Shown here in pieces: positions 3,830-56,506 of a DNA stretch of 64,000 nucleotides. Under the pieces are notes generated by a model. The model was not told the origin of the DNA and did no database searches. It saw only the letters and a list, made by a program, of their open reading frames with translations. The position numbers and the translations under genes are program-made. Within the stretch, counting starts at the first letter, position 1; the number at the start of each line of letters is the position of its first letter. The DNA is from a virus: positions 17,781 to 81,780 of IMG/VR virus record IMGVR_UViG_3300034037_000036; one strand, given 5' to 3'.

Positions 3830-4372
3830 ATGGATAATTTATCAATGTTTACTTACCTTATAATATTTTTTGGTGAGTTGGAAGATGAAAAAATTGAATA
3901 TCTAAATTCAATAAATAATATGAGTAATGGAAATTTTTGTATGAAATACAAAGGCAAAACATTTTATGTAATGCATACAAACCATTATATATTTGAGATG
4001 AAAGAATTGTTGGAAAGAAAGATTAGTTTGGAACATGTCATAAATATGTTTGAAGATATAGGATTTTCTTGGAAATTTAATGATGATAAAATAAATAAAT
4101 TTTTAGATGAAAATATATTAAAGATTAAATATATAATTGAAAATATGAAAAATAGTTTTTTTATTCCAAGCCCATTTAACAAAATGTCTAAAACAGATCA
4201 GGCAATTTATAAAAAAAGAGAATTAAATTTAGATGATGTAAAAGATTTATCAATAGATGAAATAAACAATATGATAAATAAATATTTGGATTTTGGTATA
4301 AATAAATTAGATGATGTGGACAAGAGGAATTTAGAGTTATTAACAAATTTGTTAAATGAAAGAAAAAAATAA
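3830..4372 (+). CDS. hypothetical protein
   Basis: 180-aa ORF abutting the sbcC stop; no recognised motif. Confidence 0.75.
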   Translation: MDNLSMFTYLIIFFGELEDEKIEYLNSINNMSNGNFCMKYKGKTFYVMHTNHYIFEMKELLERKISLEHVINMFEDIGFSWKFNDDKINKFLDENILKIKYIIENMKNSFFIPSPFNKMSKTDQAIYKKRELNLDDVKDLSIDEINNMINKYLDFGINKLDDVDKRNLELLTNLLNERKK

Positions 4373-17534: not shown

Positions 17535-18443
17535 ATGAGTAATAGAAAAAGATATAAAAGTTGCGTTGTATTATTGGAGAGAATATTAAATCCAAGTGAA
17601 GGCGCTGTAAAAAATTATTTTAAAGATGTCAGAGACCAAAAGACATTAACAAGGGAAGAAGAAATTGATCTAATAAGAAAATATAAAGAAGAGGGGGATA
17701 TTAAGGCAAGGGATACTGTAATAAATGCCAATTTAAGATTTGTTATTTCTGTTGCAAAAAGTTTGTCAATTTGGGATGTTGATATAATGGATTTAATAAA
17801 TGAAGGAAATATTGGTTTAATAAATGCAATAGAAACTTTTGATTATAAAACAGGTAATAAATTTATTTCTTATGCCGTATGGCATATAAGAAAGGAAATA
17901 ATGTCGTTTATAAGGTCTCATAGTTCTTCAATTAGAATACCAGAGAACAAATTATCCAATATTGCAAAAATGAAAAAAGTAATTAATAAACAAGAACAGA
18001 TTTTGGGCAGAAATGTTTATCCAGATGAAATTGATTTTAAAGATGAGATTGGTGAATATACTGATTTTGAAATTAGATTTTTAGAAAATGAAAATATTGC
18101 CAGACCAATTTCATATGATAAAAAAATAAAAAGTGAAGAAGATTCAAATGATTTATTATCTTTATTAAGTTCCAATGATAATTTTGAAAAAAACTTTATT
18201 ATAAAAAATGATTTAAAGTATATATTATTTAGATTATTGTGTAGATTAGATGAAACTACTAGGAAAATTATTTTATTGTATTTTGGTATAAATGATGAAA
18301 ACATAAGATATACTTATGAAGAAATAGCCCAAAAATGTAATTTAACAAAAAAAGAAGTTATCACAAAAAAGAATATGGGTATATATACATTAAAAAAATT
18401 CGCAAGAATGAAATATAAATCTATTAAAGAAATATATAGTTAA
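17535..18443 (+). CDS. sigma-70 family (RpoD/RpoS-like, no region 1.1) sigma factor
   Basis: YFKDV...LTREEEIDL...ARDTVINANLRFVISVAK...DLINEGNIGLINAIETFDYKTGNKFISYAVWHIRKEI; region 4 HTH (YTYEEIAQKCNLTKKEV). Confidence 0.92.
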   Translation: MSNRKRYKSCVVLLERILNPSEGAVKNYFKDVRDQKTLTREEEIDLIRKYKEEGDIKARDTVINANLRFVISVAKSLSIWDVDIMDLINEGNIGLINAIETFDYKTGNKFISYAVWHIRKEIMSFIRSHSSSIRIPENKLSNIAKMKKVINKQEQILGRNVYPDEIDFKDEIGEYTDFEIRFLENENIARPISYDKKIKSEEDSNDLLSLLSSNDNFEKNFIIKNDLKYILFRLLCRLDETTRKIILLYFGINDENIRYTYEEIAQKCNLTKKEVITKKNMGIYTLKKFARMKYKSIKEIYS

Positions 18444-46900: not shown

Positions 46901-48935
46901 CAGATATATTTATTCGTTTTAACGCATTTTTTACTTTTGATGATAATAGTTTCCTACCAATAGTATATTTGTTTGAAATTATATAACCAATAATAACAGA
47001 TATTTTATCATCAATGGATGTTATTTTATCACCATTTTTATAAGTTATATCATCAATAGTTAAGTCATCGTTCCCCCATATATTCATTCCATACTGTATA
47101 GCTACACGATCACCAACTCTTAAATTTTTTAATTTTGTCCATTTAAAACCTTCCCCATTTATATAAGTAAACAATTTATGGTTTAAAGAACCTTCAATCC
47201 AAGAATATTCTGTTAATATTTTTTTAGTTTCAACATATCCATTATTTTTAAATAAATTTCCTTTTCTTAATTTATCTTTTCCAAGAACATTGTATTCATC
47301 AATTTCATAACCACCAATTTTATCTTCATCTATAAAATCATATACATTTCTTAATCCCTTGTCAGTAAAAACAAACGTATCTTTTGTTACACATGATATT
47401 AATGTGGCTCTACCACCAGTATTGTGTGAAATAAAACCATTACTAATAAATGAATTTGTTTTAGGTACATGTAAATCATAAGTTACATCTTCATAAGTTT
47501 CTATTGATACTATTTTATCAAAATAATATGATATGTTGGGATATTGGGCAATTTCTGCAATAAAATCATTATATATCATTATATAATTGTTGCCAATTTT
47601 AGGAATGTAACCTAAATTGAGTAATAAAACACCTAAATCATTTAACACCTTACTATTGTTACAGAAATATTTTATATTATCATTTTTTCCTCTTGCAATT
47701 GGATATATAAAATTTTCAACTACTATCTTTGGAGAAGTCAATATTTTTCTTGGGAAAACATTGTCTTTATCAGGCATTATATCATTTACAAATGAAATAA
47801 AATCTTTACTATCAATAATTAAATTATCATTTTCATAATAAAAATTAACTAATAAAGTATTTAATGTTTTTTCTATTTTTTCAGAATCATATATAAATTC
47901 TTTTTTTATTGATATTTTATCTGAAACTTCGCCAAAAAAGAAAATTAAACCCAATATTCTACATAGTTGTTCATCTTGGGATAAATTTAACGGTAAATTT
48001 ATATCAAAATAATCACCAATGATTTCATCATTTTTTCCAAACATTTGTTGAGAAAATGTTATTAAAGGAGAATCACCCACCTTTAAATCACACATTTTTA
48101 CCCATTTATTTTCATCATCCCCACCAATTAATATTGGATGTTTCCAACTACCTTCAAGAGTTAATCCTAACCTTGTTTTTATTTTATATACTGTTGATTT
48201 TTCTGATACAAATGTTTTGGTAACATCTTCTAAATATCCTGAATAATTACATACTTTAAATTTGTTTTTTAATTCAGAAAATCCAACTGTTTCTTTTTCT
48301 TCCAGCAAATCATACAATTCAACCAAACCATTTTCAGTTAATATTAAAGTATCTTTTTTTAAACAACCTAACGACATTAATGCAGCACTAAATACTTCAA
48401 CACCATTATCAATAAAAGCCGCCTCATCCATAACAAGATAAGTTGGTGTATATCCCCTAAGCGCATCTTTTGAAGTTGCAACGGCTTTTGCACGGGAACC
48501 ATTTGGTAACAACAATTCTTTTTTTGATTCTCTAATAAAAATATTTAATGTGCTATTGATATAATATTCGTATCCCCATACCCATCTTGGCATTTGTGAT
48601 AAGAAGTCTTTAACTTTTGCAAGAAATTCTTGTGCCATATCCTGCTTATTTGCAAGAATAAGTATAGCTTCAGGACTATTTTTATCGGCAAAAGCAATTT
48701 TAACGGCAAGATATGCTGCTGTAACAGTAGATACACCCGCTTGTCTTGGTTTTGCAATGATATTTAATCTATGATCTTCATATGCTTTAATAATGTCTTT
48801 TTGTTTTGGAAATAATTTGAATTGAACAAATTTATCTTGTGTTTTATCAAATGTTTCTAAATACGTTTCAATTGCATATATTGGGTCAATTAAACATTTT
48901 GCATATTCTTTTATTATTTCATCTCTAGATAACAT
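43920..48935 (-). CDS. terL: terminase large subunit (gp17-like) with three inteins; about 584 aa after splicing
   Basis: KPRQAGVST (Walker A), LVMDEAAF (Walker B), IS|TPNG coupling motif, AQELDVSF, YIMG|CDVARGDGKDYS nuclease motif, NDDLIMA. Confidence 0.96.
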   Translation of the reverse strand: MLSRDEIIKEYAKCLIDPIYAIETYLETFDKTQDKFVQFKLFPKQKDIIKAYEDHRLNIIAKPRQAGVSTVTAAYLAVKIAFADKNSPEAILILANKQDMAQEFLAKVKDFLSQMPRWVWGYEYYINSTLNIFIRESKKELLLPNGSRAKAVATSKDALRGYTPTYLVMDEAAFIDNGVEVFSAALMSLGCLKKDTLILTENGLVELYDLLEEKETVGFSELKNKFKVCNYSGYLEDVTKTFVSEKSTVYKIKTRLGLTLEGSWKHPILIGGDDENKWVKMCDLKVGDSPLITFSQQMFGKNDEIIGDYFDINLPLNLSQDEQLCRILGLIFFFGEVSDKISIKKEFIYDSEKIEKTLNTLLVNFYYENDNLIIDSKDFISFVNDIMPDKDNVFPRKILTSPKIVVENFIYPIARGKNDNIKYFCNNSKVLNDLGVLLLNLGYIPKIGNNYIMIYNDFIAEIAQYPNISYYFDKIVSIETYEDVTYDLHVPKTNSFISNGFISHNTGGRATLISCVTKDTFVFTDKGLRNVYDFIDEDKIGGYEIDEYNVLGKDKLRKGNLFKNNGYVETKKILTEYSWIEGSLNHKLFTYINGEGFKWTKLKNLRVGDRVAIQYGMNIWGNDDLTIDDITYKNGDKITSIDDKISVIIGYIISNKYTIGRKLLSSKVKNALKRINISEDSFLRLIKSIGIEINCDVSEIVLPKKLMSLSKKATIGLLEGIFTGSKYKNGELYLESESLFLLRQISMLLNNLGVLSKITKFIDNDFENTSITYKLSITGKFLNVVYSLFNRLVFPSNFNFDYDYHSEDNIPNLMNWVVSIKNRCVEYSETKLKASEIINKYKNEINREDLIILKHKLLKEKPFEFTDVDFDILSIISENIYWDKIISIKSSENYTYDFSLPHSEDFWCHSIIYNGILGHQTPNGQDPLYYETYIQAKEKKNGFNVIELRWYEDPRYNKNLRWVKKIPLDDGGFDEIVEYEKDFTIESYNKRIEDGWKPISDWYIEMCDALNGNKRMIAQELDVSFIGSGGNVISDDVIMMHEKTNVKEPEWIGGENDEFYIWKYPQNDHKYIMGCLPPGEKVLTNKGLKNIEDIDNNFKLINENGEYVNIINKQIYEVKDEPLYEIKLSHTLRTTKFTKEHPILVSKDGGDNFEYVKCENVNVGDIIKFPNVYKKNIIDINTIIKDFIDEDKEYIFKDEIFWWFVGVFIAKGTALNDNITIVLHDKQKRILENIKNNIANKLNIDLKIDFCSNTIKIEINDDILYKFFNKVFYNENNKIISEEIKHLDLNFKKHIIKGFFDGCGEYNIFNEEVLEILFVHYDIEILESIQNILLSLGVFSEMSQLLYNPIHNLNIIYLKLDNYYSYKLLNEILKEINVNDNIITADLIKEPNNIQKKFIENNDYILFTISNIDTTKYSGVVYNFECDTHTYICHHITTHNCDVARGDGKDYSTIVVIDTDEMEQVMEYQGKCLPDEFAEIIEEYGNLYNAFTVIDIAGGIGVSTILQLLNKGYDKLYYDKSIGNSLNKKLNIHSKDGKIPGFNASGVRLQMISHFEYMLRNNEFKIRSIRLVNELKTFVYNNKGRPDHKPGKNDDLIMASAMALWVLERSFKELEKSKNMTKAMINAWVSGKDLKQNIYNKRPNKTDWFINNNNNNQNDDYIWLFGKNFKK
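44616..45713 (-). mobile_element. TerL intein 3 (366 aa)
   Basis: IMG|CLPPGEKVLTNKG ... VYNFECDTHTYICHHITTHN|CDVARG. Confidence 0.92.
46176..47393 (-). mobile_element. TerL intein 2 (406 aa), C-terminal Gln
   Basis: LIS|CVTKDTFVFTDKG ... YDFSLPHSEDFWCHSIIYNGILGHQ|TPNG. Confidence 0.9.
47421..48365 (-). mobile_element. TerL intein 1 (315 aa)
   Basis: SLG|CLKKDTLILTENG ... YDLHVPKTNSFISNGFISHN|T. Confidence 0.92.
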
Positions 48936-49095
48936 TATAGTAATTATTTATTTAATCAAAAAATGCTATTATTAAAACCACCATACATAATTAAATATAA
49001 TGATTGTGGCTTTAATGTTAATTTAAAATTTAATCTTATTGACTGTTTTAAATGTTAGTTAAAACAATATCATGATGATATTTTCATAAATATTT

Positions 49096-49145
49096 CGGCA
49101 AGGAAACCCATTGGTCAGCTCTGCTGCCGATGGGAGGAATTGCCG
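49096..49145 (+). repeat. IS200/IS605 left-end subterminal hairpin
   Basis: CGGCAA...CCCATTGG-TCAGC-TCT-GCTG-CCGATGGG...TTGCCG imperfect palindrome. Confidence 0.8.
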
Positions 49146-49196
49146 CTCCGTAATTAAATTATTTAACAAAATTAGTAATTATAAGAAAATTATTTG

Positions 49197-49204
49197 TATA
49201 TTTG
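49197..49204 (+). promoter_or_regulatory. Bacteroidota-type -7 promoter element driving tnpB (probably leaderless)
   Basis: TATATTTG followed by CATT and the GTG start at 49209. Confidence 0.55.
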
Positions 49205-49208
49205 CATT

Positions 49209-50273
49209 GTGAAACTTACATTGAAAATAAAACTTTTGCCTACCGATGAACAGGTTAACTTGCTTCTCGAAACGATGAAAGAGGCTAATGCTGTTTGTAA
49301 TGCTATTTCTGATATAGCTTGGCAAGAAAAGATTTTCAATAAGTTTAAGTTGCATCATCGAGTTTACCACGCTTACAAGGCTACGTTTCAACTTTCCTCT
49401 CAAATGCTTATAAGGCAAATAGCTAAAGTTGCTGATGCTTATAAGTTGGATAAGAAAACTAAACGCACTTTTAAACCACTTGGAAGTATTGCTTATGATA
49501 GCAGGATAATAACTTACAAGTCCAATAATGTGGTTTCTTTGTGGTGTATAGGTGGCAGGCAAAATATTGATTTTGTTTGCCATAATCCTGCTTATATTCC
49601 CTATATTAAAGGAGAGGCTGATTTGGTTTACAAAAAGGGTAAATTTTACCTTTATCAAACTGTTGATGTTCCTGAAAAAGATGTTAATGATGTTGAGGAA
49701 TTTATTGGCTGTGATTTTGGTTTGACTGACATAATTGTAACTTCTGATGGTGTTAAGTATTCTGCTGATGAGCTTAACGCATATCGTAAACATAGACAAA
49801 AGGTTCGGAGTTCTATTCAACGCAAAGGCACGAAAGGGGCCAAACGCCTCCTGAAACGGCTTTCTGGCAAAGAAAGAACTCATGCTTCCATAATTAATCA
49901 CACTATTGCAAAGTCTATTGTTCAATCTGCTAAAAAGCAAGGCAAGGGAATTGCCATTGAAGACCTTACTGGAATTAGATTTACAAGTAAAAAAAGAAAC
50001 AAGAAGTTTCGGACTAAACTTGGTAACTGGAATTTCTCTATGCTTCGTAAGTATATTGAATATAAGGCTTTGCTTAATGGTGTGAAATGTATTGTAGTTA
50101 ACCCTGCTTATACAAGTCAAACATGTAGTACATGTAAGCATATTGGAAGACGAACCAATAAAGTGTTTAAATGCACTAACACAAATTGCAAAGTAGATAT
50201 TATTGACGCAGATTTTAACGCCTCTCAAAATATCTCTTTGCTTGGGGTTAGAAAACTGTTCATGAAAATTTAA
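49209..50273 (+). CDS. tnpB: TnpB RNA-guided nuclease of the outer IS element; native C-terminus displaced by the IS607 insertion
   Basis: GTG start (MKLTLKIKLLPT). RuvC-I GCDFG, RuvC-II IEDL, zinc finger TSQTCSTC..FKCTNTNC, RuvC-III DADFNASQNI. The tail VRKLFMKI is read from IS607 left-end DNA; the native tail lies at 52330-52382. Confidence 0.92.
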   Translation: MKLTLKIKLLPTDEQVNLLLETMKEANAVCNAISDIAWQEKIFNKFKLHHRVYHAYKATFQLSSQMLIRQIAKVADAYKLDKKTKRTFKPLGSIAYDSRIITYKSNNVVSLWCIGGRQNIDFVCHNPAYIPYIKGEADLVYKKGKFYLYQTVDVPEKDVNDVEEFIGCDFGLTDIIVTSDGVKYSADELNAYRKHRQKVRSSIQRKGTKGAKRLLKRLSGKERTHASIINHTIAKSIVQSAKKQGKGIAIEDLTGIRFTSKKRNKKFRTKLGNWNFSMLRKYIEYKALLNGVKCIVVNPAYTSQTCSTCKHIGRRTNKVFKCTNTNCKVDIIDADFNASQNISLLGVRKLFMKI

Positions 50274-50342
50274 GTAAAAATTAGGAAAGTTAGATAAAAT
50301 TATGTAAATTTGTTGAACTTTTTAATTTCATTGTATATTTAT

Positions 50343-50561
50343 ATGAAAACAAAAATACAAAAATTAATAGATAAAATGGAAAATATACAATACAAGGTAG
50401 TTCGTGTAACTAAAGAAGAATTTGAATTGGAAGGTGGTGACATTTATCCTCATACATTCGAATTGGATGAAGACATTACTGTTGAGGAATTTCAGAAATT
50501 ACTTGATTCATCAAAACAATTGGTGTTGGAGCAGATAAAAAGAATTAACGAAGAAGAGTGA
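50343..50561 (+). CDS. 72-aa acidic protein carried inside IS607, coupled to tnpA
   Basis: ATG 50343 follows TATTTAT directly, and its TGA overlaps the GTG start of tnpA. Confidence 0.7.
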   Translation: MKTKIQKLIDKMENIQYKVVRVTKEEFELEGGDIYPHTFELDEDITVEEFQKLLDSSKQLVLEQIKRINEEE

Positions 50562-51187
50562 GCAACCTACTAAACATAAAAGAAGCATCAGAGTACCTTA
50601 ACGTACATCCAGATACACTTAGACGTTGGGATAAGGAAGGTAAACTCATCCCTGTTAAAACTGACGGTGGACATAGAAGGTATCAACAAGAAGTCCTTGA
50701 TGAATTCATTGGTATCCATCAAAGAGAGGTTAAGGAAGTTGTTCTTCCTGTAGCAATATATTCTCGTGTGAGTTCACATGAACAGAAAGCAAAAGGGGAC
50801 CTTGATAGACAATCGCAGAGATTGAGTGAATACTGTGCAAAGAAGAAGTTTGTTGTTGGAGAAATTATAAAGGATGTTGGAAGTGGGTTGTCAGATACGA
50901 GAAGTGGATTCTTAAAGTTAACGAAGCTTGTGATTGAGAAGAAGATTTCTAAAATTATAATTGAACACAAGGACAGGTTGACAAGATTTCAGTTTGGGTT
51001 TATTGAGCGAATGTTCAATAGTTATGGTGTTGAGATTGTATGTGTGGAGAAGGTTGATGTAAGTGAAGAGGAAGAATTGGTTAATGACATCATGATGCTT
51101 ATGGCAAGTTTCAGTGGTAAATTATATGGTAAAAGGAGTGTTAAGAGAAGAAAAAATAAAAAAAGAAGAATTAAAGTTGATAAGTAA
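50558..51187 (+). CDS. tnpA: IS607 transposase TnpA (MerR-type HTH + serine recombinase)
   Basis: EASEYLNVHPDTLRRWDKEGKL..KTDGGHRRY; AIYSRVSS (catalytic Ser); DVGSGL; IEHKDRLTRF; EELVNDIM.LMASFSGKLYG.RS. Confidence 0.96.
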   Translation: MSNLLNIKEASEYLNVHPDTLRRWDKEGKLIPVKTDGGHRRYQQEVLDEFIGIHQREVKEVVLPVAIYSRVSSHEQKAKGDLDRQSQRLSEYCAKKKFVVGEIIKDVGSGLSDTRSGFLKLTKLVIEKKISKIIIEHKDRLTRFQFGFIERMFNSYGVEIVCVEKVDVSEEEELVNDIMMLMASFSGKLYGKRSVKRRKNKKRRIKVDK

Positions 51188-51190
51188 ACA

Positions 51191-52315
51191 ATGAAAATAG
51201 TTCGTTCATCCAAATGCTCATTAAAATTCTCAACTGACAATAAATTAAGTCAGTTGAGAACCATTCTTTCCGAATATGGAAGGGTGGTTAATATCTTTAT
51301 TGATTATTTTTGGGAATTGGATGAACTTCCTTCTAAAGGAAAGTTGTTAAAACCAATTGTTGATATTCCAACTTATGGAGATGAACCAAGTTGGCTTTCA
51401 GCACGACTGAGAAAGGTTGCTGCAAGAGAAGCGATAGATATGCTTCTTGCAATGAAAAATAGATGGAAGGATAATCCAAAGAAATTAAAGAAGCCAGTTC
51501 ATAAAGGCAAGAAAATGAATGTGAGTTCCACAATTGCTGACCTAATTTCGGCACAAAACGCAACTGAATTTGATTGCTGGCTTCATCTTTCATCCATTGG
51601 TAATAAGATAATATTGGATTTACCAATTAAATTACACAAACAGTTTCATAAGTGGAATGAACTTGGAAATAGACTCAATTCTTATATTATAACTGATAAA
51701 TATGTACAGTTTTCTTTTGAGATTGAGACTGGTAAGAAAAGAGAAGGTAAGAAGGTTGTTGGGATTGACACAGGAATAAATGCACTTGCTTCTTCTTCTT
51801 CTGGCAAACAATATGGGACTGATATTAAGGAATTGATTGAGAGAGTTAAGAGATGTAAATATGGTTCAAAAGGTCAGCAACGGGCAAGGAGAGCATTAAA
51901 ACAAAGAATTGATGAAATTGCTATTGAGGTAATTAGTAGTGAAAACCCAGATTTAATTGTTATTGAGCAATTAAAGAACATGGGCCATAAAAGCAAGGTC
52001 AAACGCCTATTGACCAAAAATATTAGGCGTTCTATCGGTATTTGGAATTGGAGGTACTGGCTTATGAGGATTGAACAACAGTGTGAATTAAACCGTGTTT
52101 CGTTCAGAACTGTTTCCCCATATTACACCAGCCAAACATGCCCAAACTGTAACCATGTCGATAGGAAGAACCGAAACGGGATTGAGTTTAAGTGTCAGAG
52201 TTGTGGTTACACTGACAATGCAGATATAAACGCTGCCTTAAATATCATGAATCGGTTCATCTTGGGAAAATACGGTTCCCAATACAAACAAGAGAACATA
52301 CGTAGTTTTACGTAA
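51191..52315 (+). CDS. tnpB: IS607 TnpB RNA-guided nuclease
   Basis: RuvC-I GIDTG, RuvC-II VIEQL, zinc finger TSQTCPNC..FKCQSCG, RuvC-III NADINAALNI; ends 14 bp from the element's right end. Confidence 0.92.
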   Translation: MKIVRSSKCSLKFSTDNKLSQLRTILSEYGRVVNIFIDYFWELDELPSKGKLLKPIVDIPTYGDEPSWLSARLRKVAAREAIDMLLAMKNRWKDNPKKLKKPVHKGKKMNVSSTIADLISAQNATEFDCWLHLSSIGNKIILDLPIKLHKQFHKWNELGNRLNSYIITDKYVQFSFEIETGKKREGKKVVGIDTGINALASSSSGKQYGTDIKELIERVKRCKYGSKGQQRARRALKQRIDEIAIEVISSENPDLIVIEQLKNMGHKSKVKRLLTKNIRRSIGIWNWRYWLMRIEQQCELNRVSFRTVSPYYTSQTCPNCNHVDRKNRNGIEFKCQSCGYTDNADINAALNIMNRFILGKYGSQYKQENIRSFT

Positions 52316-52329
52316 GTTTGATTGAACGG

Positions 52330-52382
52330 TATCCGTAAACATGCCTGAAAAATCGACTATGTATTGCTCTTTGCATTCGTAG
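52330..52382 (+). pseudogene. displaced 3' end of the outer tnpB (VSVNMPEKSTMYCSLHS-stop)
   Basis: In frame with ...SLLG once 50248-52329 is removed; the SVNxPE tail is typical of TnpB C-termini. Confidence 0.8.
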
Positions 52383-52390
52383 TTAGGTTT

Positions 52391-52429
52391 AAAGCCCATC
52401 CCATCGCTTTGCGTGGGTGGGTAGTTTAC
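52391..52429 (+). repeat. IS200/IS605 right-end hairpin and TTAC cleavage site
   Basis: AAAG-CCCATCCCATCGC-TTT-GCGTGGGTGGG-TAGTTTAC. Confidence 0.85.
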
Positions 52430-52450
52430 AGGGAAGAAAACTTTGTGAAA

Positions 52451-52487
52451 TGTGAATCCCATTTATTTAATAAGTGGGGCATTCACA
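52451..52487. terminator. stem-loop, probable terminator for the minus-strand run
   Basis: TGTGAAT-CCCA...TGGGGC-ATTCACA imperfect inverted repeat 4 nt from the stop at 52492. Confidence 0.5.
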
Positions 52488-52491
52488 GGTT

Positions 52492-52947
52492 TTAATTTAA
52501 TGATTTGATTGAAGAAATAATATAAGTTAATTTATTTTTTGGGACACCTATTTTTTCTGCAAAATATACAATAGCCTCTGCTTTTTCTTGTGGTGTATTT
52601 AACCTTTCGACAATGGTTTTCATTGTGTTGCTATCAAGTTTGTCCAATAATTTTTTAACATCGTTTTTAACATTCTCATCAACCTCTTCTTTAATATGAT
52701 ACTTTTTCTTAATAGATTTAACACATGATTCATATTTATCTTTATCATCTCTACCAACACTTTTGGTACATATTGCCCAGGGATTTATTTTTTTAGCCTC
52801 ATCAATAACCTTTATTGTTACATTATCATCATCACCAACCTTTCTAATAACATTTTCAAGATCTTCTTTATTCACAACCACCACAGCTTCTTCAATTAGT
52901 TTTTTAATATCTTTTTTCATGATACATAATTTAAGGTTATTATTCAT
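52492..52947 (-). CDS. hypothetical protein, candidate internal head protein (probable start ATG 52920)
   Basis: MKKDIKKLIEE leader; internal VIDEAKKINPWAICTKSVG...KYESCVKSIKK. Confidence 0.7.
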   Translation of the reverse strand: MNNNLKLCIMKKDIKKLIEEAVVVVNKEDLENVIRKVGDDDNVTIKVIDEAKKINPWAICTKSVGRDDKDKYESCVKSIKKKYHIKEEVDENVKNDVKKLLDKLDSNTMKTIVERLNTPQEKAEAIVYFAEKIGVPKNKLTYIISSIKSLN

Positions 52948-53366
52948 TCCTTTTCCTCAAAACTTACGAATTTATAATTATCCATTAAATCTCTCATAAA
53001 TAATTTTTCTTCAACATCAACAATACTATCACCAAATTTAAATACCAATCTGTTTTCTGGATAAGTTTCATATTCATCAATATTTTCCCACCCCAAAGCT
53101 ATAACACCATCTATACTATCCCACATTGAAAACAGTGAACTGTTTTGAACTGTTTCAATTACAACATCTGTTTTAATGGTTATTACTCCAGAAATAAAAT
53201 CTTTTGAGGGAGGTTTTGGTAAACCAGATGCTGGTAACATATCCCAATCAGTACCATCTATATCTTCAATATTTTTAGAAAAAATAAATTCATAAATAGT
53301 TAACCCCTCCCAATCTTTACCTACAGTATTGATAAATACAAGTTTTAAATCTTGATTTTTTTTCAT
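52944..53366 (-). CDS. hypothetical protein
   Basis: 140-aa ORF overlapping both neighbours. Confidence 0.75.
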   Translation of the reverse strand: MKKNQDLKLVFINTVGKDWEGLTIYEFIFSKNIEDIDGTDWDMLPASGLPKPPSKDFISGVITIKTDVVIETVQNSSLFSMWDSIDGVIALGWENIDEYETYPENRLVFKFGDSIVDVEEKLFMRDLMDNYKFVSFEEKE

Positions 53367-54745
53367 TATATCAATTCTTTAAATCTTTTAATGAAATAAT
53401 CAACACTTTCAGTTATATTTTCACTTTTTTCTTCTTTTTCCATTTCATTTTTAATTTCTTCTGGAATTTCTTCATTTTCGGAAGTTTCAGCTTCTTCATT
53501 TCCAACTTTTTCATTTTCAGATTTTTCATTTCCAGCACTTCGTATTTTCATAATAATATCTTCTTTATCTTCTTCATCCATCATAGCAGCATGTGTAGCT
53601 GAAATTATCATATTAATAACAAATTTTTCCAAATCAAAATCAGGATGTTCCAAATCTTTTGAATATTTTCTTAATTCTGATGCAAGTTTACCAGCCAAAC
53701 TTTGTATTCTTTTTTTAGGATCTTCATTCATTTCATTTGTTTGGGTTGCATCATTTTGTGGTTCACTTTCATTATTAAATTCTATAGGTATGGATAATTT
53801 ATAATCTTTATCTTCTGTTAAATAATCAGCATCATGACCATTGGGTTTTACGGTATTCATATAAAACACAGCCATTTTTCTTGCTTCTTCGCTGGTTCTA
53901 TATGCTTTTTTTGCACAAGAAATGTTTGGACCTTCAAAACCATGTTCTCTACACCATTCAGTGAATTTTCCTTTTTCAATAGCTTCATTTATTTGACAAT
54001 CTTCTTTTATGGGTGCAGTTTCTCTTTTGGATAAGAAATACTCTAATTTTAATGCAATATCATTGATAGTTTCATCTCCTTTTATTTTAATAATTGGTTT
54101 TCCGTTAAAATATAATGTTTTATCTTTAACAACGATTCTATCATCAGGGAATCTTTTGTCTAATTCATCTTTTAGAAATTTTTCAAAATCTGGTTTAAGC
54201 CCGCTATCAACCCAAGCGGTTTCTTCAGTTATTATATTGTCAAGGTTTTTTACTTTTTTAATAATTTCATCAATCATTTTATCAGATTCGGTTATAATAA
54301 CATCATCAAAATTTTCCATAATAGTTTTTTTTGAATTTTCTGTTTTATTATTTTCATTATTATCTTCTAATATTAGCTCACCAGTATAGTGTAAATTATC
54401 ATTTTCAAATACATTAACTTTTTCACCACCATATAATTCGTGTAGTGATAACATTTTTAAATTTAATTTTTTTAATGCTTTTGAATAAGATGGATATTCA
54501 TGATATTTTTTATTAATTTCTCCACCAATATATCTCAAATCTGAAGGTAATATATTATTTTTCTTTTCACTTTCCATTATATAATATTTATTATTCTCAC
54601 GAGCAATCGCATATACTTTACCATCAGGAGCTTTTTTAGTTAATTCAATTGACATATTAAATTTATTTTTCTCCGTTTCCTTAGGCATTAATCTATGCAT
54701 TTCAGAAATCAATTCTTTAGTTGTTTTGTTTTTAAAATGTTTCAT
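53366..54745 (-). CDS. hypothetical protein with many I/L-x-E sites, candidate processed head protein
   Basis: LILED, VIITES, IITEE, QINEA, YLTED, NITES; contains GKFTEWCREHGFEGPNISCAKKA. Confidence 0.7.
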   Translation of the reverse strand: MKHFKNKTTKELISEMHRLMPKETEKNKFNMSIELTKKAPDGKVYAIARENNKYYIMESEKKNNILPSDLRYIGGEINKKYHEYPSYSKALKKLNLKMLSLHELYGGEKVNVFENDNLHYTGELILEDNNENNKTENSKKTIMENFDDVIITESDKMIDEIIKKVKNLDNIITEETAWVDSGLKPDFEKFLKDELDKRFPDDRIVVKDKTLYFNGKPIIKIKGDETINDIALKLEYFLSKRETAPIKEDCQINEAIEKGKFTEWCREHGFEGPNISCAKKAYRTSEEARKMAVFYMNTVKPNGHDADYLTEDKDYKLSIPIEFNNESEPQNDATQTNEMNEDPKKRIQSLAGKLASELRKYSKDLEHPDFDLEKFVINMIISATHAAMMDEEDKEDIIMKIRSAGNEKSENEKVGNEEAETSENEEIPEEIKNEMEKEEKSENITESVDYFIKRFKELI

Positions 54746-56401: not shown

Positions 56402-56440
56402 TTTATTCCTTATTAAATTTGAATTATTAAAATTTTTTTG

Positions 56441-56448
56441 TATATTTG
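56441..56448 (+). promoter_or_regulatory. Bacteroidota-type -7 promoter element (TATATTTG)
   Basis: TATATTTGCA upstream of clpC; a TATTTATA copy also sits at 56464-56471. Confidence 0.55.
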
Positions 56449-56506
56449 CATTCGTTGAACGGTTATTTATATATGAAATAAATAAACATTAAAAACAAAA
56501 CGTAAA

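Follow-up and report, generated by a model that had tools for sequence, protein, structure and literature searches.

The closest described relatives of the arrangement reported here are IS607 elements capable of TnpB-dependent homing. These elements integrate at GG, their TnpB uses the TAM TGGG and their scaffold ends in UCGG, while self and target are told apart at position -3, where a C versus a G separates the element from its target (bioRxiv 10.1101/2023.11.20.567912). G-rich TAMs have been published for IS607 TnpBs in two studies (bioRxiv 10.1101/2023.11.20.567912; PMC11061315). According to the homing rule, the guide of a TnpB equals the empty site of its own element (Karvelis 2021, PMC8612924; bioRxiv 10.1101/2023.11.20.567912).

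Here we describe a phage genome in which an IS607-family element (50248-52329) is nested within an outer tnpB-only IS605-type element (49088-52429) that measures 1,260 bp without the insert. All coordinates refer to the window, the 64,000-nucleotide stretch analyzed (positions 17,781 to 81,780 of IMG/VR record IMGVR_UViG_3300034037_000036); the source record is an 86.6-kb viral contig derived from a metagenome. Between 49.1 and 52.5 kb the plus strand carries a TnpB-type reading frame (49209-50273), a small one (50343-50561), a serine recombinase (50558-51187) and a second TnpB-type frame (51191-52315). The features on which the analysis rests are the following.

49083-49087, plus strand: outer TAM TTCAT, conserved immediately before the left end in relatives whose flanks are otherwise unrelated and in the X3 and L102 siblings.
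49088-52429, plus strand: outer tnpB-only IS200/IS605-type element, delimited by alignments with the IMG/VR relatives L004-L083 and by bridging or flank-diverging contigs.
49209-50273, plus strand: outer tnpB, truncated (Pfam Cas12f1-like_TNB, 5.5e-19; NCBIfam guided_TnpB, 160.5 bits, cut-off 100).
50244-50247, plus strand: predicted inner TAM GGGG (family consensus NGGG), from the left flanks of relatives and Logan copies.
50248-52329, plus strand: inner IS607-family element, 2,082 bp, from the sequence, family end alignments and near-identical copies elsewhere (runs X1, X2, X9).
50343-50561, plus strand: 72-aa ORF in the left part of the IS607, with a reading frame conserved in L089, L091-L095 and L100.
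50558-51187, plus strand: IS607 serine-recombinase TnpA (NCBIfam transpos_IS607 equivalog, 197.1 bits, cut-off 110).
51191-52315, plus strand: inner tnpB, 374 aa, intact (guided_TnpB, 108.1 bits, cut-off 100).
52158-52329, plus strand: predicted inner omegaRNA scaffold, ending ...ACGG, from a 14-sequence consensus structure with 54 pairs.
52328-52429, plus strand: outer omegaRNA scaffold at the right junction (SL1, SL2, SL3, UAGUUUAC), from single-sequence folds of relatives and covariation.
52330-52349, plus strand: predicted inner guide TATCCGTAAACATGCCTGAA, from the right-end boundary, SL1 covariation and siblings.
52430-52449, plus strand: predicted outer guide AGGGAAGAAAACTTTGTGAA, beginning at the first base past the conserved right end.
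52451-52497, plus strand: hairpin with U-run in the MFE fold, probably a terminator that also serves the convergent gene 52492-52947 (minus strand).

Joining nucleotide 50247 to 52330 restores an outer TnpB of 363 aa that ends in ...SLLGVSVNMPEKSTMYCSLHS and a stop codon (its C-terminus may also be written ...LLGVSVNMPEKSTMYCSLHS). The joined DNA aligned without gaps across the joint with 12 intact IMG/VR relatives, and the restored 3' end is collinear with that of 40 distinct relatives. The uninterrupted joint was also found directly, both in a hot-spring contig (run X3, record 19), which carries 49932-50247, one base and then 52331-52430, and in the metagenome contigs L102 and L103 (...CTTGGGGCATCCGTAAACATGCCTG...), while contigs from crude-oil DNA and RNA libraries (X2, X9) span this joint with a 5-nt variant. 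These results confirm that the nested insertion in the phage genome is real, as the first-pass annotation had proposed with sequences and coordinates that proved correct. Since the record is a metagenome-derived viral contig and both IS types are multicopy in such samples, we considered an assembly chimera, in which IS copies of different genomes were joined by the assembler and no nested molecule exists. However, both junctions carry the exact IS607 signature (NGGG left flank, AACGG end and common GG(T)) and the outer halves match to the base with nothing lost or duplicated, an outcome that a chimera would not reproduce, making this explanation exceedingly improbable. Within its own 86.6-kb record, neither element has a second copy, and a megablast search of 48940-52500 against phage GenBank records returned no match. 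The only extra match in the record was a 38-nt promoter-like stretch at 56415-56452.

The inner element carries the small ORF, a serine TnpA and TnpB. Its TnpA combines an N-terminal MerR-type HTH with a resolvase catalytic domain (Pfam MerR, 1.3e-13; Resolvase, 2.1e-20) and contains the motif YSRVSS; tnpB lies downstream of tnpA, the TAM in the left flank is G-rich and the scaffold ends in CGG, all as in IS607 elements. The RuvC triad and zinc ribbon of the inner TnpB are intact (GIDTG, VIEQL, NADINAA and CxxC...CxxC), and the protein is 62-68% identical to 17 IMG/VR relatives of like length. Family profiles and motifs thus both support an intact TnpA and TnpB of IS607 type. Compared with PDB sequences, the inner TnpB gave partial matches only, and the 72-aa ORF matched nothing in Pfam or NCBIfam. 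The inner and the outer TnpB share only ~30% identity across the RuvC halves.

The ends of the inner element were examined in 17 relative loci from IMG/VR, which together with the window represent 14 different contexts. The junctions read GGGG/TTAG... on the left and ...AACGG/TATCC on the right. AACGG followed by T was found in all 17 relative loci (13 distinct insertion contexts) and in the window, after which the sequences diverge. Both junctions have a GG core, also in the relatives, and the target is not duplicated beyond it; as GG(T) is common to both junctions, the exact boundary is uncertain by as much as 3 nt. The TAM consensus NGGG was deduced from only six independent left flanks, three with GGGG, two with AGGG and one with CGGG (the crude-oil copy); the TAM context had been given as TTGGGG, and GGGG at 50244-50247 indeed lies within it. 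Contig pieces with 0-2 mismatches to the IS607 occur in other contexts (vent and crude-oil runs), and these near-identical copies at other loci suggest that the IS607 was mobile recently. In run X1, an IS607 copy carries a 558-bp deletion in tnpB.

The outer element displays subterminal imperfect hairpins at both ends (left GGAAACCCATTGG...CCGATGGGAGGAA, right CCCATCCCATCGC...GCGTGGGTGGG), conserved with covariation, and is inserted 3' of TTCAT without duplication, which are the characteristics of the IS200/IS605 family. A Y1 (HUH) TnpA is missing from it: the 121 nt from 49088 to the tnpB start at 49209 contain no other ORF, and the relatives share this layout, in which the left end is followed by tnpB without a Y1 TnpA. 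The element is a non-autonomous tnpB-only member of IS200/IS605, and its family is common in viral contigs, with 110 confirmed relatives. Both tnpB genes of the locus encode the RuvC D-E-D triad and a zinc ribbon and score above the HMM cut-off; in the outer TnpB, the motifs GCDFG, IEDL and DADFNAS and the zinc ribbon are all encoded before the joint at 50247. Its native frame runs to ...NISLLG at 50247 and continues with eight foreign codons (VRKLFMKI) and a stop, so that the last 17 codons are missing. This lost tail differs in sequence and length between relatives and is encoded by covarying RNA stems, suggesting that it is probably dispensable. A partial outer-type tnpB (L082) was rejected as another interrupted copy, as it is a truncation without an IS607 insertion.

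The right end of the outer element is at 52429, where the homology of 40 distinct relatives stops after ...GGGTAGTTTAC and where the X3 and L102 siblings, which reside at other loci, diverge as well. The outer guide accordingly starts at 52430, as the first-pass annotation had placed it, and the predicted target is TTCAT-AGGGAAGAAAACTTTG. The outer TAM had been located correctly but given one base short, as TCAT; the conserved motif is TTCAT. No other close match to the outer guide was found in the window, and no meaningful guide match elsewhere in it. Extra matches to the right-end motif in L033-L036 were dismissed as chance matches within coding DNA. MITE-like derivatives of 289 bp (L102/L103) retain the omegaRNA region of the outer family.

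The last ~172 nt of the inner element, up to 52329, form a predicted omegaRNA scaffold with a conserved structure. In the family alignment, 93.9% of the cells were paired, compared with 34-45% when the partners were slid, 24 pairs showed compensatory change, and none of 500 shuffles reached the observed values; the window copy fits the family consensus structure. No Rfam family, RAGATH-18 included, was matched when 48000-54000 was scanned with cmscan at E <= 1, and the inner omegaRNA thus appears to belong to a class absent from Rfam. The AACGG ends of the relatives and the covarying structure ending at 52329 place the start of the inner guide at 52330, where it had been predicted. The predicted TAM and target read GGGG-TATCCGTAAAC..., and the donor joint specified by this guide is the uninterrupted outer tnpB/omegaRNA. 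The inner TnpB had been described as programmed against the outer transposon. Guide and TAM do match the outer element, but this wording is too strong, since any TnpB guide equals its own empty site and the match follows automatically from the homing rule and need not reflect evolved targeting of the outer element by the inner TnpB.

The insertion point lies in the last codons of the outer tnpB, which are at the same time part of the outer omegaRNA. In single-sequence folds of the relatives, three stem-loops (SL1, SL2 and SL3, the latter being the right-end hairpin) precede the terminal UAGUUUAC. SL1 consists of a 5-bp stem and a loop ending in GTAAAY. Its stem pairs completely in 37 of the 41 sequences compared, in 16 different arm combinations, showing that it covaries. 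The IS607 interrupts the 5' arm of SL1 after its second nucleotide (GG/TAT). In the MFE fold of 52150-52500, SL1 re-forms at the right junction as GGUAU-CCGUAAAC-AUGCC, the GG being supplied by the end of the IS607. The IS607 thus splits SL1, and its own terminal GG rebuilds the stem, a detail that is new and that leaves a complete outer scaffold next to the outer guide. The outer element thus keeps both ends, a TnpB with all catalytic motifs and a complete scaffold adjoining its own guide.

Both guides had been proposed to lie in tandem on one read-through transcript. They are spaced by 100 nt, and a consensus scan found no terminator-like site on the plus strand after 51289, while the predicted hairpin with U-run follows at 52451-52497; one read-through RNA that carries both units is therefore plausible, with the spacing and the lack of an intervening terminator-like site standing as observations and transcription itself as the presumed part. 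The hairpin at 52451-52497 was not called by the consensus scan, its loop being ~12 nt long and the limit of the scan 3-8. The RNA-library contigs (X9) are pieces of sibling elements from other loci and cannot show transcript ends. As the inner guide (52330-52349) comprises most of the nucleotides of the outer SL1, one RNA molecule would serve only one of the two nucleases, and on the basis of the predicted folds, a molecule trimmed into the inner RNA could not also start the outer RNA.

Our best explanation of the locus, to which we assign a probability of roughly 0.8, is a nested IS607 whose guide serves ordinary homing and retention at its own site. Anatomy, boundaries, conservation of RNA structure, protein integrity and sibling sequences are direct observations, and for transcription, RNA processing, cleavage and homing at the nested locus we infer the following course. 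The IS607 would have integrated at an NGGG/T site in the last codons of the outer tnpB. According to the published homing model, the inner TnpB would bind an omegaRNA derived from the 3' end of the inner tnpB itself, and as this RNA would run on into the flank, guide and GGGG TAM together would specify the sequence without the IS607. TnpB would then cut a vacated or empty copy of its own site, arising after TnpA excision or present in co-replicating phage genomes, and recombination with a filled copy would reinstall the IS607. The inner guide consequently most likely serves to retain the IS607 at this site and to re-copy it into empty versions of the site; among other copies of the outer element, only near-identical ones could be invaded.

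Alternatively, the nested insertion could have ended the career of both elements, with neither RNA-guided system working because the inner guide is locked in SL1 or the inner RNA is not made, and with the outer TnpB inactivated by the loss of its tail and the separation from its RNA. In the MFE fold, the first 16 nt of the inner guide are predicted to pair into a hairpin that also takes in the final two bases of the scaffold, and activity could be lower as a result; the last 17 codons of the outer tnpB are gone, and decay does occur, as the X1 copy with its internal tnpB deletion illustrates. However, all three reading frames of the inner element are intact and retain the catalytic motifs, the inner RNA of the window copy fits the family consensus, the variable outer tail is probably dispensable, and the near-identical IS607 copies elsewhere suggest recent activity. 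We therefore regard such a dead end as unlikely, for the inner as well as for the outer system.

The first-pass annotation went further and suggested that the IS607 nuclease would cut every uninterrupted sibling of the outer IS in co-infecting phages or the host. In this strong version, the nuclease would serve as a weapon or gene drive directed at the outer IS family as a whole, and several observations speak for it: the 110 confirmed relatives reside in viral contigs, near-identical siblings occur in several environments, and L-G codons (CTTGGG(G)) give many members of the family an NGGG-like motif at the place of insertion. Against this stands the target itself, which is a covarying stem and hence varies across the outer family, with 4-10 mismatches in the 20 guide nucleotides in 40 other distinct relatives, that is, at least 4 of 20 positions in each. 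Many outer relatives moreover lack NGGG at the equivalent position.

Near-identical siblings also deviate from the guide. The exact TAM and target (GGGG + TATCC...) are absent from IMG/VR, an exact-target scan of GTDB genomes gave no match, and a scan of JGI metagenome contigs and GTDB genomes in which C or T was allowed at guide position 1 detected no T form, and in the GTDB genomes no C form either. The JGI metagenome scan yielded three matches, two of which are the siblings L102 and L103 with C; the third (L101) was rejected as a chance match in unrelated GC-rich DNA. In all near-identical uninterrupted siblings found (X3, an X9 contig end and L102/L103), guide position 1 is C and not T, and in the X2/X9 sibling variant CGTCT replaces TATCC. 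The TnpB of the IS607 element ISFba1 cuts far less or not at all when a single mismatch falls within positions 1-13 (PMC11061315), which argues against efficient attack on such siblings, although a U opposite G at guide position 1 might be tolerated by the inner TnpB. Furthermore, a second IS607-interrupted outer copy was found neither among 80 outer-type loci nor by exact-junction scans of IMG/VR, JGI and GTDB. In view of both the near siblings with C and the mismatches of the remaining relatives, the claim that every sibling is cut is thus not supported, and a weapon against the whole family appears quite improbable. As attack on all siblings is not supported by the present data, the biological impact is probably local, namely that the IS607 is retained at this single site.

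The T at 52330 is probably derived from an ancestral C, as C produces a perfect GGCAT/ATGCC stem and is present in four sibling contexts. For the same reasons, we rejected the idea that C at guide position 1 is a resistance allele. The T could be a rare C-to-T variant that created an NGGG/T site, or a change tied to integration. The empty sites of the IS607 relatives L089 and L094, which would reveal the source of the T after AACGG, were both searched for and neither was found; in these two loci the T occupies the third position of a Gly codon, so that protein homologues are uninformative on this point.

A more far-reaching and rather doubtful reading considers the outer family a landing pad and the read-through RNA a two-headed precursor: the IS607 would drive itself through a multicopy tnpB-only IS and its 289-bp MITE-like derivatives, with inner guide and outer SL1 competing for the same nucleotides. 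Linked to this reading is the possibility that integration installs or requires the invariant T behind the right end; the C-to-T change at 52330 would then document how the site turned into a target. If the landing-pad reading were true, the locus would represent a direct RNA-level conflict between two RNA-guided transposons.

With ordinary homing as the preferred reading, both elements belong to known kinds and it is their arrangement that is instructive. The locus is a natural example of stacked RNA-guided transposons, in which one guide is made of the guide RNA of the other, and for two uncharacterized phage-borne TnpB families it supplies the exact boundaries, the TAMs (NGGG and TTCAT) and the conserved RNA structures. 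It also raises the questions whether a TnpB nested in a multicopy element spreads among the copies of that element, as in plasmids, and whether two nucleases compete for one transcript.

Among known systems, the inner element most closely resembles CboIStron/IS607 homing (Zedaveinyte et al., bioRxiv 10.1101/2023.11.20.567912; Science 2024). Both combine a serine TnpA with TnpB and have a GG core at both junctions, in both the G-rich TAM is the target motif of TnpA (TGGG there, NGGG here), and both scaffolds end in CGG, with the C at position -3 sparing the element itself. In both, the right flank acts as the guide, which makes the donor joint the target. Unlike CboIStron, the inner element lacks a group I intron and carries an extra conserved 72-aa ORF before tnpA; here, the right end is always followed by T, and the insertion site is the omegaRNA of another TnpB element. 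ISFba1 and other IS607 TnpBs guided by RAGATH-18-derived RNA (Ren et al. 2024, PMC11061315) are similarly compact (387 aa, compared with 374 aa here) and likewise have a G-rich 5' TAM adjoining the left end and a guide of ~20 nt downstream of the scaffold, but their TAMs are AGGAG/GAGGG instead of NGGG, and the locus described here has no match to Rfam RAGATH-18.

The outer element is comparable to ISDra2-type IS200/IS605 TnpB systems and tnpB-only (IS1341-like) elements (Karvelis et al. 2021, PMC8612924; Meers et al. 2023, bioRxiv 10.1101/2023.03.14.532601). Both possess subterminal hairpins and an A/T-rich 5-nt TAM (TTGAT in ISDra2, TTCAT here), and in both the omegaRNA overlaps the 3' end of tnpB and the guide runs from the first flank base onward. 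The outer element differs in belonging to a phage-borne family with 289-bp MITE-like derivatives and in lacking a Y1 tnpA, and must therefore be mobilized in trans. Finally, the TnpB gene drive in multicopy plasmids (bioRxiv 10.1101/2025.02.20.638934) follows the same idea, the cutting of unoccupied copies in order to spread. Its drive has been demonstrated experimentally, whereas no matching unoccupied copy was found here in IMG/VR, JGI metagenome contigs or GTDB; the carrier there is a plasmid, while at the present locus it would be another IS or the phage genome.

The T at 52330, directly 3' of the right end of the inner IS607-family transposon, is C in all four near-identical uninterrupted siblings of the outer tnpB-only IS605-type element (the outer IS). 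AACGG is followed by T in 14 of 14 independent IS607-family contexts. TnpA may require NGGG, the consensus of the left-flank TAM, followed by T, or the T may be fixed by integration.

Shortened derivatives of both elements were found. The outer IS has a MITE-like derivative of 289 bp at 3391-3679 of L102, a JGI metagenome contig carrying the uninterrupted outer-IS joint, and the same element is found in a second such contig, L103. In this derivative the left end is fused to the final ~109 nt of tnpB, followed by the complete omegaRNA/right end, with TTCAT directly 5' and its own guide, TTAATTTTCTAAAGTA; it is a mini-element with guide RNA only. A hydrothermal-vent contig (record 7 of sequencing run X1) holds an IS607 copy with a 558-bp internal tnpB deletion (window 51684-52241) that leaves the final 87 nt at the right end in place; this copy is a decaying or miniature derivative.

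Most of the public runs sharing 31-mers with the stretch (X1-X20) are labelled as samples of hot springs, hydrothermal vents, crude oil, oil fields, landfill or compost. Four of these (X1, X2, X3 and X9) were compared against the stretch. Between them they contain near-identical pieces of the two IS elements sited at other loci, and no pieces of the phage locus itself.

The IS607 relatives from IMG/VR (L084-L100) are 2.4-2.9 kb long, with extra DNA of variable extent between tnpA and tnpB. L087 contains a second TnpB-like stretch at 1414-2004, and L097 a TnpB fragment (17-565) immediately 5' of its tnpB. Two right-end-like AACGGT motifs lie 25 nt apart in L085 at 4100-4137 (…GGAACGG TAAATCTAAACGAACTATTGAACGG T…), where the doubling may be the leftover of a second IS607 end beside the first. 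Among relatives of the outer type, a tandem pair of right-end hairpins 116 nt apart, each ending in GGGTAGTTCAC, was observed at 6890-7056 of L077 and in the same region of L014. These hairpins are from another IS605-type element and could represent a solo right end or mini-element beside a full element, which would give two successive guide positions.

One further feature lies within the IS607 element:

50343-50561, small acidic ORF of 72 aa, 5' of the IS607 tnpA, conserved in relatives

Conservation was seen in the left parts of L089, L091-L095 and L100, which share ...KVVRV.K.EFEL..., and searches of Pfam and NCBIfam with this ORF gave no match. The motif TTGTATATTTGCAT precedes it at 50331-50344 (two mismatches), and also precedes the outer tnpB (49194-49207) and a clpC-like gene (56438-56451). 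Allowing up to two mismatches, 12 matches were observed vs 4.2 expected. Since TTGTATATTTGCAT includes TAnnTTTG, the Bacteroidota-type -7 promoter element, the motif hints at a host from this phylum.
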